Shown here one piece after another: positions 15,492 to 59,317 of a DNA stretch of 64,000 nt. Numbering within the stretch: position 1 is the stretch's first letter; each line of letters opens with the position of its first letter. The position numbers were made by a program, and so were the translations under genes. Origin of the DNA: an uncultured Chthonomonadaceae bacterium. GTDB taxonomy: Bacteria > Armatimonadota > Chthonomonadetes > Chthonomonadales > Chthonomonadaceae. The notes beneath the pieces were generated by a model. That model had not been told where the DNA came from. It worked only from the letters and a program-made list of their open reading frames with translations, and made no database searches. The stretch is taken from positions 25,184 through 89,183 of the forward strand of contig CAWIEK010000033.1 in NCBI GenBank assembly GCA_963835065.1, read 5' to 3'.

Positions 15492-15510
15492 CAAAGTAGA
15501 AAACAACAAC

Positions 15511-15586
15511 GGCCTGCGCAACTGGCGTTCACAGGGAAACCACCCTGGGGAAGCGCAAGGCCGAGGAACTGTCGCGCGCCTGGGCA
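15511..15586 (+). ncRNA. ZMP/ZTP (pfl) riboswitch
   Basis: P1 ggcctgcgc/gcgcaaggcc, ACTGGCG and 3' CGCCTGGGCA pseudoknot signature, upstream of purH. Confidence 0.88.
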
Positions 15587-15619
15587 TCTGCATTTTCACT
15601 GCGGAAGTCCGGGTTTTTT
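15579..15619 (+). terminator. Riboswitch expression-platform terminator
   Basis: cctgggcatctgca..tgcggaagtccggg followed by T6, overlapping the aptamer 3' strand. Confidence 0.7.
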
Positions 15620-41198: not shown

Positions 41199-41302
41199 AA
41201 AACGTCACGGCGGAACAAATACGCGAAGTCGCCGTCCACTACTTGGACACGGAGCATTACTGGCTCGGCGTGGTGCGTAGCGGCATAGTGGAAAGAACTT
41301 GA
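41199..41302 (+). pseudogene. Displaced duplicate of the M16 peptidase 3' end (direct repeat copy 2)
   Basis: Encodes NVTAEQIREVAVHYLDTEHYWLGVVRSG...stop versus NVTAEQIREVAVRYLDTERYWLGVVRGG...stop. Confidence 0.85.
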
Positions 41303-41328
41303 TACGTCATGGAGGCGCAGGAGAAGAT

Positions 41329-41664
41329 GTGAAGAAGAGAAGCAACGCCTTAACCAACAGACAGTTGGCGGTACTACGCCATATACACCAACACATTCAG
41401 CAACAGGGCTTTGCGCCCAGCAACCGCGAAATGTGCGAAACCTTCCACATTTCCACCGTGACGGGAGTCAGCTCGCATTTGCATGCGCTCGTGGGCAAAG
41501 GGATGCTCCTTCGTCCGGGAAAACGTTCGCGCAGTATGACCGTCACGGAGGCTGGCAAGCGGGCGCTGGGCGAGTTCCCGGAGATGCCCGGAACCTTCGC
41601 CTACTTCCTCTACGACGAAGACGCGCGGTGTATGAAACCGATGGATGAGGAGAAGTCCGATTAA
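41329..41664 (+). CDS. LexA-type DNA-binding domain protein without peptidase domain
   Basis: LTNRQLAVL..I....GFAPSNREM..F..S...V..HL.AL..KG.L.R..RS. Confidence 0.8.
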   Translation: MKKRSNALTNRQLAVLRHIHQHIQQQGFAPSNREMCETFHISTVTGVSSHLHALVGKGMLLRPGKRSRSMTVTEAGKRALGEFPEMPGTFAYFLYDEDARCMKPMDEEKSD

Positions 41665-41814
41665 CGGCCTTGTGCTTTTTTGCCCATGTTGCTGCTGCCT
41701 TCTCCGCCCGTGCCTGATTTTTCGCCTCGCGCCATTGCCACAAGGCGAATTCTTTCCGTTCCAAAAAAGACGCGCAGAAATTAGAAAAAAATTTACATAA
41801 AACATCAGACAAGC

Positions 41815-41842
41815 GAACCTTCTTAGCCTCCGACTCGTCTAA
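41815..41842 (+). promoter_or_regulatory. ECF-sigma-type promoter, copy 1
   Basis: GAACC-N16-CGTCTAA; the same motif and spacing occur at 58911-58938 (-). Confidence 0.7.
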
Positions 41843-41849
41843 CAGTATA

Positions 41850-42095
41850 CATTCGTCTATTAAAATAGATATGCTAACGAGCCAGGTGGCGGGACGTTGA
41901 AAGTTCGGAGATATTCTCCCCTCTCAACAATCTAACCTGGAAGGGAGGTGCAAGAAGATGCCTGTACACTCTCCCCGTTCGCCCTGACGCGCATGAGGTC
42001 ACGACGCCTCTTCTGAAAAACTTGACACAACGAGACATCGGGCTGGAAGCGCTGCATTGCCAAGATTTCGACGATCTCTCTACATATCCTTTTTC
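41850..42095 (+). ncRNA. Conserved structured leader RNA with uORF, copy 1
   Basis: About 155-nt core closely matching the reverse complement of 58712-58870; hairpins and uORF conserved. Confidence 0.55.
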
Positions 42096-42386
42096 CAAAG
42101 CACTCGCATAACTTCCCCACTTCCTATTGTCAAAAGTCGGGCTGCCCAATGATTCGGGAAGTTATAGATTTACGAACACTTACAGCAAAAAAATCATTTC
42201 TTTACTCTCCTTCAAATCGCGCGACAGCCTCGTTAAGTATGCACAGTTTGGCACTCTCATCAGAAGTCTGTGAATTTTTGCACAAACATGCAACGCCACG
42301 CGCATACGAGCGTAAGTAGAATTAAGCAAGTTCTCGTTTGTTGTGTTTGCCTGCGACGCGCCCTGCGCGTTAAAGGAGGTACGCTC

Positions 42387-43800: not shown

Positions 43801-44925
43801 TTACGTACAATCCGGCTGCGTCTGGAAGAGTTTTATCAATTCCACTTCTTCCAGCGTGTATTCCTCATGGTGGCGGCGAATGACGCGCTGCGCTGCCGGG
43901 CGGAAATCGCGCAGGGTAATCCCCTGCTGATACCGCTCAAAGACGACCGGGTGAATGTAGCTTTCGCGGCAGACTGAGGGCGTATTGCCCAAACGATCCG
44001 CTACGATTTTTGCCGTTTCGACGATGTTATGCTTGGCCTGCTTGTCGTTTTCCGGCTTGCCCATTTCGGCCAGCGCGATAGCCGCTTGCAGTGTGCCGCC
44101 CCATGTCCGAAAATCTTTGGCGGAAAACGCGCTCCCCATCGCCGATTTGATGTAATGGTTGACATCCGTAGGCGTAATCGGGCGTGGATTGCCTTCCGCA
44201 TCCAGGTAATTGAACAGCCTGACACCCGGAATGGCTCTGATTTCGCGCATCAACTCGACCAATGCCCCATCCACCAGTATGCGCCGCTGATGGATGTGGT
44301 GCTTGCCCGTAAACTGAAACAGCAGGTGCGATTCATCCAGTTCGTGCAAATGGTAATTGCGCAGCGACGTGATGCCATACGTTTTGTACTGCTCCACGCT
44401 GTCTTCCGAGCCAAGCCGGAAGTACAGGTCATTGATGAGCCGCGTCACCACTGCCAGTACGCGGTTTTTGCCCAATCCCTCTTCCGCGATGTGCTGATTG
44501 CTGACATGGCGCAGTTTCGGCAGATGTTCGCCGAAATGCTCGATCTTCTCGAACTTTTTGCGCGCCTGGCAGGCGGCATAATCTATATGGTAGCGGTACT
44601 GAATACGCCCGCTGGAATCAACGGCAATGGCCTGCAAGTTGCTGTGCGACGAAGGCGCAACCCGCACTTCGGTATAGCCGGGAGGAATGGCGAGATGCGC
44701 AATCCGCGCAAGCTGCTCCTCGTCCGTAACGCGCCGTCCTTTCGCGTCCTCGTACCAGAAGCCGTCTTCCTTCGCGCCTTTCCGATGCCACCATTGCGCC
44801 CGCCCGCCCCGTTCCATCACGCGGCGCAAGCGTTCGGCAATAGCCTGCCCTTCCTCAGACATATTCCGGTTCACATGCGCTCCTGCGTCGGCTATTTCTG
44901 CTTCTCTAATATCTAATGTTGTCAT
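43801..44925 (-). CDS. Bacterial DNA topoisomerase IB
   Basis: LAIPPGY, GRIQYRYH, FRLGS, FTGK, KDFRTW, LGNTPSVCRESYIHP. Confidence 0.92.
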   Translation of the reverse strand: MTTLDIREAEIADAGAHVNRNMSEEGQAIAERLRRVMERGGRAQWWHRKGAKEDGFWYEDAKGRRVTDEEQLARIAHLAIPPGYTEVRVAPSSHSNLQAIAVDSSGRIQYRYHIDYAACQARKKFEKIEHFGEHLPKLRHVSNQHIAEEGLGKNRVLAVVTRLINDLYFRLGSEDSVEQYKTYGITSLRNYHLHELDESHLLFQFTGKHHIHQRRILVDGALVELMREIRAIPGVRLFNYLDAEGNPRPITPTDVNHYIKSAMGSAFSAKDFRTWGGTLQAAIALAEMGKPENDKQAKHNIVETAKIVADRLGNTPSVCRESYIHPVVFERYQQGITLRDFRPAAQRVIRRHHEEYTLEEVELIKLFQTQPDCT

Positions 44926-45864: not shown

Positions 45865-47343
45865 ATGCCAAAAATCGTAGGAATTGACTTAGGAACGACC
45901 AACTCGGTCATTGCCGTTATGGAGGGCGCGGAGCCTGTGGTGATTTCCCTTGCGGAAGGAACCCGGCTCTGCCCCTCCGTTGTCGGGTTTACCCGAACGG
46001 GGGAGCGGCTTGTCGGCCCGCTTGCCAAACGCCAGGCATTAGCCGCGCCGGAGCGCACCATTCGCAGCATCAAGCGGCACATGGGCACAGACTATACTGT
46101 TGAAATTGACAACCGGCGCATGACGCCGCAGGAAGTTTCCGCTCTAATTTTGCAAAAATTGAAAGCGGACGCGGAAAGTTATCTCGGCGAACCGGTGGGA
46201 AAAGCCGTGATTACGGTTCCCGCCTATTTTTCCGACGCGCAGCGCCAGGCCACCAAAGACGCAGGCACTATCGCCGGTCTGGAAGTGGTTCGTATTCTTA
46301 ATGAGCCAACGGCAGCCGCGCTTGCGTATGGCGCGAAGCGCGACGATGTGCAGAACGTGCTTGTGTGGGATTTGGGCGGCGGCACGTTCGATGTTTCTCT
46401 TTTGGAAGCGGGCGACGGCTTGTTTCACGTCCGCGCCACCAATGGCGATACCCGATTGGGCGGCGACGATTGGGACACACGCCTGATGGAGTGGCTGGCT
46501 GACCAATTTCAGCGAGTCAACAGCGTCAACATACGCGGCGACCGATCCGCCATGCAGCGCTTGCAGGAAGCGGCGGAAAAAGCCAAAATTGAACTCAGCG
46601 CCCTATCACAAACCAACGTCAACCTGCCCTTTCTGTCCGTCGGCGCGGACGGCCCGCTCCATCTGGATGTGGATTTAAGCCGCGCGCAAATGGAGAAACT
46701 GTGTTCTGATCTGCTGGAACGATTGATTGCGCCGTCCAAACAAGCGCTTGCCGACGCCAAAATGAAGGCGGAGGAGTTAGACCTTGTCCTGCTCGTCGGC
46801 GGCTCCACGCGAATGACGGCGGTGCAGGAACTTGCGCGGAAAATGTTCGGTAAGGAACCGTATCGGGGCTTAAACCCGGAAGAAGCCATTGCGCTTGGCG
46901 CGGCATTGCAGGGCGGCATTCTCAACGAGGAAGTCACCGATTTGCTGCTGCTGGACGTGACGCCGCTTTCCCTGGGCATCGAAACGCTGGGCGGCGAAGT
47001 CACGCACATCATCAGCCGCAACACGACTGTTCCCACGCAAAGCAAAAAAGTCTTTACAACCGCCAATGACGGCCAGACTACCGTTGAAATCAAAGTTTAT
47101 CAGGGCGAACACCGTTTGGCGCGGTATAATAAATTTCTGGCGAACTTTCAACTGACCGACATTCCCAGGCTTGGGCGCGGCCTGCCCAAAATCGAAGTGA
47201 CATTCGACATTGACGCTAACGGCATCGTCCACGTCACCGCAATGGAACAAACAACAGGCCGTCAACAGCATATTCAGATCAACAACACCGTCGGCCTGAG
47301 CGCGGAAGAAATCACCCGGTTAAGCCAGGCCGTTCAGCAGTAG
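45865..47343 (+). CDS. dnaK: Hsp70 chaperone DnaK, C-terminally short (492 aa)
   Basis: [45 protein letters not shown]. Confidence 0.92.
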
Positions 47344-54966: not shown

Positions 54967-55440
54967 TTATCGCGCGCCCGCAAACGCCATTTCCGGTTTT
55001 TTCGTTTCACAGGTTTGCATCAGCGCCGGGAGGGCCTTGATTACCTGGACAATGGCCTCCTTGGAGGTTTCGTTGTGGGCAAAGGCTTTCTCCGTGAATT
55101 GACGCAACTGCGCGAAATCGCAGCGGTTGATGGAATAATGCTGTTCAATGTTGAAAAATCCCATATTCCACTGCGCGAACATTCTGGATTGGCTGGGCGC
55201 TTTATAAATAACCCGCACCTCATTATGGCGTTCATCGGCTGCGATTTTTTCCAACAGGAAAGACAATGCTTCCGAGTGCCCTTCCAGCACTTGAACAAAG
55301 TAATTTCCTACCTGCAGCAGTAAGCCTGTAACGTTGAGGTTCCGATTCTTATGTGCAGCCGCCGCTGAAATCTGCGCCGTCTCTTCGGAACTAAGAGGCC
55401 GGGTTGCGTGGCTGATGTAAATAATGACTTCCTGATCCAT
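54967..55440 (-). CDS. BLUF-domain blue-light sensor
   Basis: IYIS, N..LNVTGLL, FVQVLEG, I.ADERH, RMFAQWNM. Confidence 0.9.
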   Translation of the reverse strand: MDQEVIIYISHATRPLSSEETAQISAAAAHKNRNLNVTGLLLQVGNYFVQVLEGHSEALSFLLEKIAADERHNEVRVIYKAPSQSRMFAQWNMGFFNIEQHYSINRCDFAQLRQFTEKAFAHNETSKEAIVQVIKALPALMQTCETKKPEMAFAGAR

Positions 55441-58167: not shown

Positions 58168-58686
58168 TCACGCTTGCCCGGCATGAACAACCGTATTCTC
58201 ATTGTTGGCCCACCACCAGTCAGCATAGTCGGTGTCTGTCGTTTCTCCGCCCAATTGGTCCACAAGCAAGGCGACCTGCCCCCGATGGTAGGAAGCATGG
58301 CCGATCAATTGAACGATCTGCACTTCGACAGGCAGGCGAAAACGTTCCCCGTTCAATTCGGTGAACTCAAAATCCTGCGCCAGTTGGTCTGCATTGAGAC
58401 GCGCGAGATAGTCTGTCCACCGGCTTTCGAGGGCGGCGAAACGGGGCCGCAGCGTGGCAAGTTCACATTGCGCGTCCCACCAGGCGGCCTGATTGGGGCC
58501 TTTCCCCTCCATGTAATCCAGCCATTTCTCCCGGCAAGCCGCCAGATGATCCGCGAGGGTAACGGCCTGCTGAAAACGGGCATCCGTGCGATTGGCTTCG
58601 GGAACCAATTCGAGCATGGCAAGCATTTTCCGGTTACAGTCTTTTTCGTATGCGTACAACCCGCGATAATGTTCGAGCAACGACAT
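58168..58686 (-). CDS. DinB family protein
   Basis: RBS ggaggtg; Y...CNRKML, HL, QLIGHASYHRGQVA. Confidence 0.88.
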   Translation of the reverse strand: MSLLEHYRGLYAYEKDCNRKMLAMLELVPEANRTDARFQQAVTLADHLAACREKWLDYMEGKGPNQAAWWDAQCELATLRPRFAALESRWTDYLARLNADQLAQDFEFTELNGERFRLPVEVQIVQLIGHASYHRGQVALLVDQLGGETTDTDYADWWWANNENTVVHAGQA

Positions 58687-58711: not shown

Positions 58712-58900
58712 TAGAAAAAGGGATATGTAGAGGCATCGTCGAAATCTTGGCAATACAGCGCTTCCAGCCCGATGTCTCATTGTGTCAAATTGTAGAAGAG
58801 AGGCGTCGTGGCCTCAGCAGCATCAAGGCGAACGGGAGGGGTGAAACATAGGACTTGCACCTCCCTTCCTGTGGATATAACATCTGTAAAGTAGACGTAT
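58712..58900 (-). ncRNA. Conserved structured leader RNA with uORF, copy 2 (5' of the DinB gene)
   Basis: Reverse complement of the 41938-42095 core. Confidence 0.55.
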
Positions 58901-58910
58901 GTACCACTGT

Positions 58911-58938
58911 TTAGACGGCTGTGTGAGGCAAAGGGTTC
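58911..58938 (-). promoter_or_regulatory. ECF-sigma-type promoter, copy 2
   Basis: GAACC-N16-CGTCTAA on the minus strand. Confidence 0.7.
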
Positions 58939-59317
58939 ATCTTTTTTGGCGTTACTTGGCTCTTTTTTGTGTCTTTTTACGGAATTATTTTTGCAGGATG
59001 GTTGCTGGATGGTTGCTGTTGGCGCTGCGCGGGAAACGGGGGCACTTGCTTTGGGGTTAGAAGTTTATCCTTCCCTGCGGCATAATAGGTGATACGGGTT
59101 TTATTTCGCCACTGTCTTCGACGGCGTTTCTCCTATTGCCTCTGGTCGTCTACATTTCTGACATGTAGCCATAAATCTAATTTTGCTGTTTTTGGCGTAT
59201 AATGGGAGCAGGAAATCCGCGCAACGGAGCAGGAAGCCCTCTGTTCGCCGTCAAAGAGATAACACCGTTTTTGAAACGCACACAAGACGCCCTCTTAAAA
59301 TGTGGAGAAGAGGAAGC

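Follow-up and report, generated by a model that had tools for sequence, protein, structure and literature searches.

A stretch of 64,000 nucleotides from an uncultured Chthonomonadaceae bacterium (the window) contains two related sequences, at 41815–42095 on the forward strand and 58712–58938 on the reverse strand, in which a promoter-like motif precedes a very short reading frame ending in Pro-stop, a hairpin and a conserved core. The initial annotation described them as a two-copy structured leader RNA, either attenuating the gene behind it or belonging to a small RNA family. The locus raises the question of whether such a unit serves the neighbouring genes, acts on its own or is simply the interior of a mobile element.

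Organization of the two window copies

All six features described by the initial annotation were recovered in both copies, and the unit proved longer than previously drawn, extending to phased A-tracts 5′ of the promoter motif and, on the 3′ side of copy 1, to an end derived from ISAzo13. Copy 1 (forward strand) opens with an A-tract-rich stretch at 41760–41814, which may be UP-element-like and is common to most copies, followed by the ECF-type promoter-like motif GAACC-N16-CGTCTAA at 41815–41842 with near-invariant hexamers and a free spacer. A second GTCTA motif at 41854–41861 lies in the region where the RNA is predicted to start. The additional CCAGGT..ACCTGG hairpin is present at 41882–41940 as reported, but it is not specific to this copy and instead marks a subfamily of 31 copies. 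The Shine-Dalgarno sequence GGAGGTG (41944–41950) can pair with CAC..CTCCC of the micro-ORF MPVHSPRSP-UGA (41958–41987); its predicted occlusion across folds is barely above that of shuffled sequences (median pairing 0.99 compared to 0.89). The hairpin GAGGT-CACGAC-GCCTC at 41995–42010 begins 7 nt past the stop codon and is followed by a core stem-loop at 42032–42080 containing the self-complementary AGCGCT (42048–42053). Directly after the core, CTCTACATA and a pyrimidine tract (42078–42096) form the predicted 3′ end, where no canonical intrinsic terminator was found. The ISAzo13-derived mini-MITE remnant at 42111–42179 includes the right terminal inverted repeat (TIR), which departs at one position from the pattern seen in the host ISAzo13 elements. 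The next gene on the same strand, encoding an NDH-2-type oxidoreductase, starts approximately 290 nt downstream.

Copy 2 (reverse strand) has the same arrangement without the insert. Upstream sequence at 59011–59049 is common to the ISAzo13-flanked B/C lineage, and is followed by the ECF-type promoter-like motif (58911–58938), a second GTCTAC motif inside a short 5′ hairpin (58890–58897), the Shine-Dalgarno sequence GGAGGTG (58858–58864) and the micro-ORF MFHPSRSP-UGA (58823–58849), which is the commonest variant with 51 copies. The hairpin at 58800–58815 again lies 7 nt past the stop, the core stem-loop occupies 58730–58778 with AGCGCT at 58757–58762, and CTCTACATA with its pyrimidine tract directly after it covers 58713–58732. 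A DinB/YfiT-family gene (PF05163) starts at 58686, giving a gap of about 27 nt to the tract, close to the 25 nt estimated before.

Copy number and distribution

The element is far from two-copy. In the host genome (G000; 71 contigs, 8.0 Mb in total), iterated nhmmer detected 162 copies and blastn 164 loci. With a covariance model trained on 33 copies, at least 47 copies were identified in the congener G002 and 13 in the congener G001; scans of 65 further genomes of the order, each with 54 candidates scored, yielded none. An exact pattern was found in 0 of 399 other genomes of the phylum, two patterns gave no matches in metagenomes, and searches of plasmids and phages gave no match; eleven viral matches were checked and were not elements. 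Among the 80 matches listed for a 16-nt pattern in GTDB, the only full elements were two G001 loci. So far as searched, the copies appear as a family of scattered mini-genes that is confined to one Armatimonadota genus.

Rfam contained no matching family at gathering score or by E-value, in keeping with the initial annotation, which recognized no known riboswitch in it: the window scan returned only an unrelated ZMP-ZTP riboswitch and the E-value scans only chance matches. The literature searched held no paper describing such an element; most subscription papers and the supplements of RNA-motif screens fell outside it and could hold one. A protein gene on either strand was rejected, as the overlapping opposite-strand ORFs have no Pfam match and linker indels of 1–3 nt break the frames. 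These indels likewise leave no conserved longer frame, and recoding at CCC-UGA into a longer protein was discarded for that reason. None of the observations named beforehand as grounds for abandoning a novel RNA was made: there is no Rfam family, homologues keep the ORF ending, and the opposite-strand ORFs have neither a Pfam match nor a frame that survives the linker indels.

Promoter and 5′ region

The expectation of an ECF-type motif was borne out in 150 of the 162 copies, which carry a GAAC(C/A)-type box, then GTCTA(A) beyond a spacer of free sequence, and a second GTCTAC 9–17 nt past the −10-like box. The strict form of this pattern occurs 101 times inside elements and once outside them in the host genome, and a relaxed matrix gave 46 weaker intergenic matches outside elements, many of them 5′ of genes. 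The AAC/GTC consensus is of a kind that we take to be ECF-type, and the motif suggests that the RNA could depend on an ECF sigma factor and be induced by stress.

Three 5′ subfamilies were distinguished, A with 31 copies (carrying the CCAGGT insert, as window copy 1), B with 59 and C with 72. Five G001 copies (L014, L016, L018, L020, L022) have a different, longer 5′ region. The 5′ side is thus modular, while what stays constant is the Shine-Dalgarno sequence, the ORF ending, the hairpin, the linker and the core. The shared 5′ region of the five carries a CAACATATAGT motif, presumably akin to an NrdR box, and their ORFs are 15 aa long with GTG, TTG or CTG starts. Remnants with the promoter and without the core were seen at G000:C54:109077 and C19:86582, one of them split by another MITE.

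The micro-ORF and its ending

GGAG and an ATG are present in 158 of the 162 host copies, and 153 of these 158 read through 8–11 residues to the same Pro-stop, confirming that the frame is maintained. It survives 3n indels, shifted ATG codons and varied N-terminal residues. In 161 of 162 copies a Pro codon directly precedes the stop, and it varies at its third base only (CCC 144, CCT 14, CCG 3); the stop codon is TGA in 155 and TAA in 6. Two residues before the Pro, the host copies carry Arg (150), His (6) or Leu (5), so that nearly all copies end in (R/H/L)-(S/P/A)-Pro-stop. The 38 distinct congener copies end in RSP (20), RPP (10), LPP (6), RAP (1) or RPS (1), and between them use each of the four Pro codons and each of the three stop codons. 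In G001 the ORFs are 9–16 aa long, start with ATG, GTG, TTG or CTG and end in RPP-stop or LPP-stop, with one copy lacking an intact start. This pattern of substitution indicates that selection acts on the micro-ORF through the end of its peptide, Pro-stop. Selenocysteine insertion at UGA was rejected because TAA and TAG take the place of TGA in other copies.

The ending was compared with 3,979 larger, high-scoring ORFs from our own gene calling of the host genome. None ended in (R/H)(S/P/A)P-stop, compared to 7.3 expected (p = 7e-4), and four ended in PP-stop, compared to 15.7 expected (p = 4e-4); Pro-stop as such is not rare, at 7.8% against a background of 6.2%. RF3 was not found in the three congeners. 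In the available text of PMC7246954, PP-stop stalls termination in Escherichia coli and the depletion of Pro-stop is stronger without RF3, while that of PMC12992588 lists RSPP and HGPP as arrest sequences and states that RAPP-like motifs require an N-terminal region for arrest.

Hairpin, core and RNA structure

The hairpin starts 7 nt past the stop in 157 of 162 host copies and in 37 of 38 congener copies, so the stem seen in both window copies as GAGG(T/C)-CACGAC-GCCTC keeps a fixed distance to the stop across the family. With the Pro codon in the P site, the hairpin would begin 10 nt past that site; trans-translation favours overhangs of up to 9 nt past the P site and still acts on those of 12–15 nt (PMC8012679, in the part available). 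Within the hairpin, a compensating change from A-U to U-A occurs in 4 of 33 aligned copies.

The 21-nt core showed 10 mismatches in 3,402 sites across the 162 copies, and the palindrome AGCGCT is present in all 162. Fitting a 20-pair model to 33 aligned copies gave 96.4% of cells paired and 13 double-change cells, more than in all 500 shuffles; only three pairs carry double changes, a number matched by 241 of the 500 shuffles, and subfamily history accounts for most of the mutual information. By these measures covariation is modest and partly phylogenetic. The core is conserved mainly as sequence. An alternative GGC/GCC fold of the core was dismissed, with 79.8% of cells paired compared to 98.2% for UGGAA/UUUCG.

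The description of the RNA as structured held in part. Whole-RNA folding energies are ordinary (z of 0.52 for copy 1 and −0.53 for copy 2), and as they are no better than those of shuffled sequences the term rests on local pair conservation. The core has no complementarity to rRNA above shuffles, and an origin from tmRNA or tRNA was rejected on best local alignment scores of 26 or less, without a meaningful match.

Insertion sequence ends

A clean empty site in G002 delimits a unit of 465 bp that is bordered by imperfect TIRs and a duplication of 10 bp. The 19-bp TIR of this unit matches a 1,271-bp ISAs1 element in G002 (NF033564, E 1.6e-120); no autonomous ISAs1 of matching kind was found in the G000 assembly, and the autonomous copy examined has no target duplication. 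Both ISAs1 ends flank 18 of the 162 copies (two of them doubtful), compared to 0 of 162 random sites, and among these 18 the target duplication is identical at 10/10 positions in six and 9/10 in three. This ISAs1-derived subfamily is a MITE, with the TIRs of an autonomous IS, a target duplication and an empty site. The ISAzo13 right end lies shortly downstream of 39 copies, window copy 1 included, and both ISAzo13 ends are present in six; the end matches two G000 ISAzo13 elements (PF07592, E 2.3e-105) and 44 solo mini-MITEs. Neither type of end was found at 81 of 162 copies, and five G001 copies have no consistent TIRs around them. The family as a whole is not a one-TIR MITE, as most copies are not bounded by the ends of one IS family. 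The RNA unit and its core are missing from the ISAs1 and ISAzo13 bodies, and the copies have likely spread as cargo between the ends of these two unrelated families.

For 16 copies with ISAs1 ends, comparison with the IS gave 77 differences in 608 TIR sites, some of which may predate insertion as the reference is the G002 element; the core had 0 in 336 sites and the hairpin 4 in 256. These rates indicate that the core has been selected after insertion, while the IS ends decayed.

A candidate ribosome-holding RNA

Our preferred reading, held tentatively and short of an even chance, is that each copy would be a stand-alone, stress-induced RNA gene which loads a ribosome and holds it at termination, amplified by IS ends and selected copy by copy. 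The gene is predicted to be turned on by an ECF sigma factor, and the transcript would load a ribosome on the 8–11 codon frame and hold it at the Arg/His-x-Pro-stop ending. The hairpin, placed at the mRNA entry channel, could then protect the stalled ribosome from tmRNA rescue. With intergenic copies spread by ISAs1 and ISAzo13 ends, the outcome would be a dose-dependent brake on translation under stress.

Each copy likely makes such an RNA because the promoter-like site, the Pro-stop frame and the core all stay intact. The conserved ending that host ORFs avoid, the constant distance from stop to hairpin, the lack of a detected RF3, the core outlasting the TIRs and the independence from neighbours all argue for it. 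Against it, the peptides are very short and variable whereas RAPP-like motifs need an N-terminal region, and nothing found links the core to the ribosome, be it rRNA pairing or likeness to tmRNA or tRNA. Pro-stop alone is not rare, covariation is modest, half of the copies have no IS end, and a purely trans-acting RNA leaves a 10-kb exclusion between copies and an antisense bias unexplained. A fuller version would make the family a new class of RNA gene, in which about 160 evenly spaced, individually selected copies park ribosomes at a tmRNA-shielded R-x-Pro-stop upon ECF induction and are linked through their palindromic loops, coupling translational shutdown to chromosome organization, with amplification by two unrelated IS families; we regard this version as doubtful.

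Alternative explanations

The exclusion and the antisense bias would be accounted for if each copy mattered at its own site, either through transcription into, or colliding with, a neighbour gated by the Pro-stop ribosome, or as a nascent-RNA chromosome anchor pairing via AGCGCU. Neighbouring copies lie less than 10 kb apart in 4 of 105 cases, compared to approximately 22.7 expected (0 of 3,000 permutations), and the coefficient of variation of the spacing is 0.74 compared to 0.96. Six other repeat families gave no such pattern in the same test and a seventh was too sparse. In gaps between co-directional genes the antisense orientation predominates (63 of 91 copies, p = 3e-4), and the missing terminator of copy 1, the universal AGCGCT and certain positions common to species also fit action at the locus. 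However, as the control repeats are shorter than the element, recombination between long repeats could have removed close copies and produced the spacing without any function. Positions also turn over: a comparison that covered 1.2 Mb, roughly one sixth of the G002 genome, included 31 loci, and 2 of these carry the element in G002. Four other positions are common to species, and the three that were aligned hold different 5′ or ORF variants. From their positions the G002 copies look clumped, neighbour genes are of mixed, unrelated function by inspection, and the predicted gain from RNA dimerization is within the spread of shuffles (−9.9 compared to −7.4, sd 2.6). Action at the locus is judged rather unlikely. 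Copies show no replication-strand bias (37 compared to 39), and a role of elements as rearrangement breakpoints was not established (18 of 20 compared to 178 of 255, p = 0.07). Among neighbouring G000 pairs closer than 25 kb, 17 are convergent and 4 divergent, and beyond 50 kb 1 and 9, a post hoc observation.

The unit might instead promote its own spread or retention, a reading that we consider unlikely; it could do so, for instance, by helping mobilization or by acting as a toxin of the minigene type, which would deplete tRNA-Pro once its control is lost. Copy numbers from 13 to 162 among congeners and capture by two unrelated IS-end systems agree with selfish cargo. Type I toxin mRNAs also have a Shine-Dalgarno sequence that can be occluded, a likeness that counts in the same direction. 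The strong Shine-Dalgarno sequence and very short ORF fit minigenes, which inhibit growth via accumulation of peptidyl-tRNA (PMC2490762, in the part available). The best-pair identity among copies, however, has a median of 87% and a maximum of 94.8% outside segmental duplicates, and therefore there has been no recent burst. The core is intact even in copies with decayed ends, and no antitoxin-like partner was seen. A type XIII retron reverse transcriptase (RT) is encoded by each of the three congeners, and four genomes that lack the element have it too. A type XIII retron ncRNA or retro-element found no support: in G001 and G002 no element lies closer to the RT than about 9 kb, and the nearest G000 copy is about 11 kb away.

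An ordinary MITE family, with an interior conserved only by common descent and gene conversion, is strongly disfavoured. It would account for the TIRs, 10-bp duplications, empty site and autonomous partners, and different subfamilies at orthologous loci suggest gene conversion. Yet invariant and saturated positions interleave every few bases, the Pro codon and stop change only synonymously, the unit is absent from the IS bodies, and the ends decay faster than the interior, the opposite of QMITE1 as described in the available text of PMC10969869.

Least probable of all is the TnaC-type attenuator of a downstream gene proposed by the initial annotation: the short distance from copy 2 to the DinB-family gene, a same-strand gene as the nearest downstream in 62 of 161 copies (median gap 237 nt) and a Pro-UGA with a C-rich linker that we take to resemble tnaC speak for it, but in 99 of 161 copies the element faces the 3′ end of an opposite-strand gene (median 97 nt; gene starts in this tally are approximate, and that of the window DinB gene was mis-called), neighbours share no function, no sensor residues or co-oriented downstream operon are conserved, and no element lies upstream of the DinB ortholog in G002 or the NDH-2 orthologs in G001 and G002. 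Its other suggestion, a small RNA family, is supported.

Comparison with known systems

To our knowledge, uORFs that stall ribosomes serve to regulate a downstream gene, and the interiors of MITEs decay. Type I toxin-antitoxin repeats (Ibs/Sib, Ldr/Rdl, AapA) likewise are multi-copy with a small ORF and an occludable Shine-Dalgarno sequence, and encode hydrophobic membrane peptides of about 17 or more residues; in contrast, the peptide here is 8–11 aa, MFHPSRSP-like and mostly hydrophilic, and no antisense antitoxin was seen.

Prokaryotic MITEs with cargo (Coxiella QMITE1/2, Neisseria Correia and ERIC; PMC5896051 and PMC10969869, as far as their available text goes) resemble the family in being dispersed, intergenic and present in tens to hundreds of copies, with TIRs, target duplications, an internal promoter, short ORFs and eroded copies. 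Here, however, the interior is not IS-derived, is common to two unrelated IS-end families and to copies without ends, and is more conserved than the TIRs; the predicted promoter is of ECF type rather than sigma-70, and a peptide C-terminus is selected. ISAs1 (NF033564) and ISAzo13 (PF07592), whose autonomous copies in G002 and G000 match the element TIRs, are carriers with bodies that lack the RNA unit.

The RAPP-like or R(H)xPP arrest peptides and Pro-stop stalling (ApdA, ApdP, SecM, TnaC; PMC12992588 and PMC7246954, in the parts available) share (R/H)-small-Pro at the peptidyl-transferase centre and an ending avoided by the proteome. In the micro-ORF a stop codon stands in place of the A-site Pro, so that it lacks the full R/H-x-P-P, and it differs further in its 8–16 residues, the lack of a conserved N-terminal module or regulated downstream gene and its presence in more than 100 copies. 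Toxic minigenes of the lambda bar type (PMC2490762 and PMC8012679, likewise in part) also combine a strong Shine-Dalgarno sequence with a very short ORF in which the last codon and termination matter, whereas the frame described here is slightly longer, lies within a conserved folded RNA and is chromosomal in many maintained copies.

On sequence evidence the RNA unit appears to be new, and its carriers, the ISAs1 and ISAzo13 MITEs, are of known kinds. It joins a stalling-type micro-ORF and a folded RNA in a stand-alone unit that stays intact in up to 162 copies regardless of neighbours. If transcribed and translated, it would be an RNA-encoded means of sequestering ribosomes in proportion to gene dosage, and would clearly illustrate how the ends of unrelated insertion sequences amplify a functional RNA as cargo. 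The unit is only about 250 nt long, and its 200 natural variants provide a ready mutational map.

Other features of the window and host genome

Directly upstream of copy 1, 41299–41664 (+) encodes a small protein consisting of a LexA DNA-binding domain alone. Elsewhere in the window were a ZMP/ZTP riboswitch (RF01750, 51.1 bits) at 15508–15592 (+), 5′ of a 572-aa ORF, a bacterial topoisomerase IB at 43801–44925 (−), a short Hsp70 of 492 aa at 45865–47343 (+) ahead of dnaJ-prmA, and a BLUF protein at 54967–55440 (−). ARAGORN reported one tRNA-SeC and one 'tRNA-Stop' in the tRNA set of G000.

The retron-like RT of G000 (type XIII, Mx162/Ne144 clade; C50:52482-55980, L084 and L085) lies beside a SWIM/BRCT gene, with only heptamer repeats between the two and no msr-msd detected by Rfam. 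Two ISAzo13 elements (G000:C41:162040-163430 and C53:451920-453285; L353 and L354) have 121-aa and 322-aa frames split at an A-run, which suggests programmed frameshifting. Gene order between G000 and G002 is heavily shuffled even over short gaps. The intergenic DNA of G000 contains dense nested small repeats, including heptamer arrays of TCAACTA, TCATCCT and ACTACTG, a REP-like CCTGCCGGG palindrome at 132 sites and IS5-type mini-MITEs.
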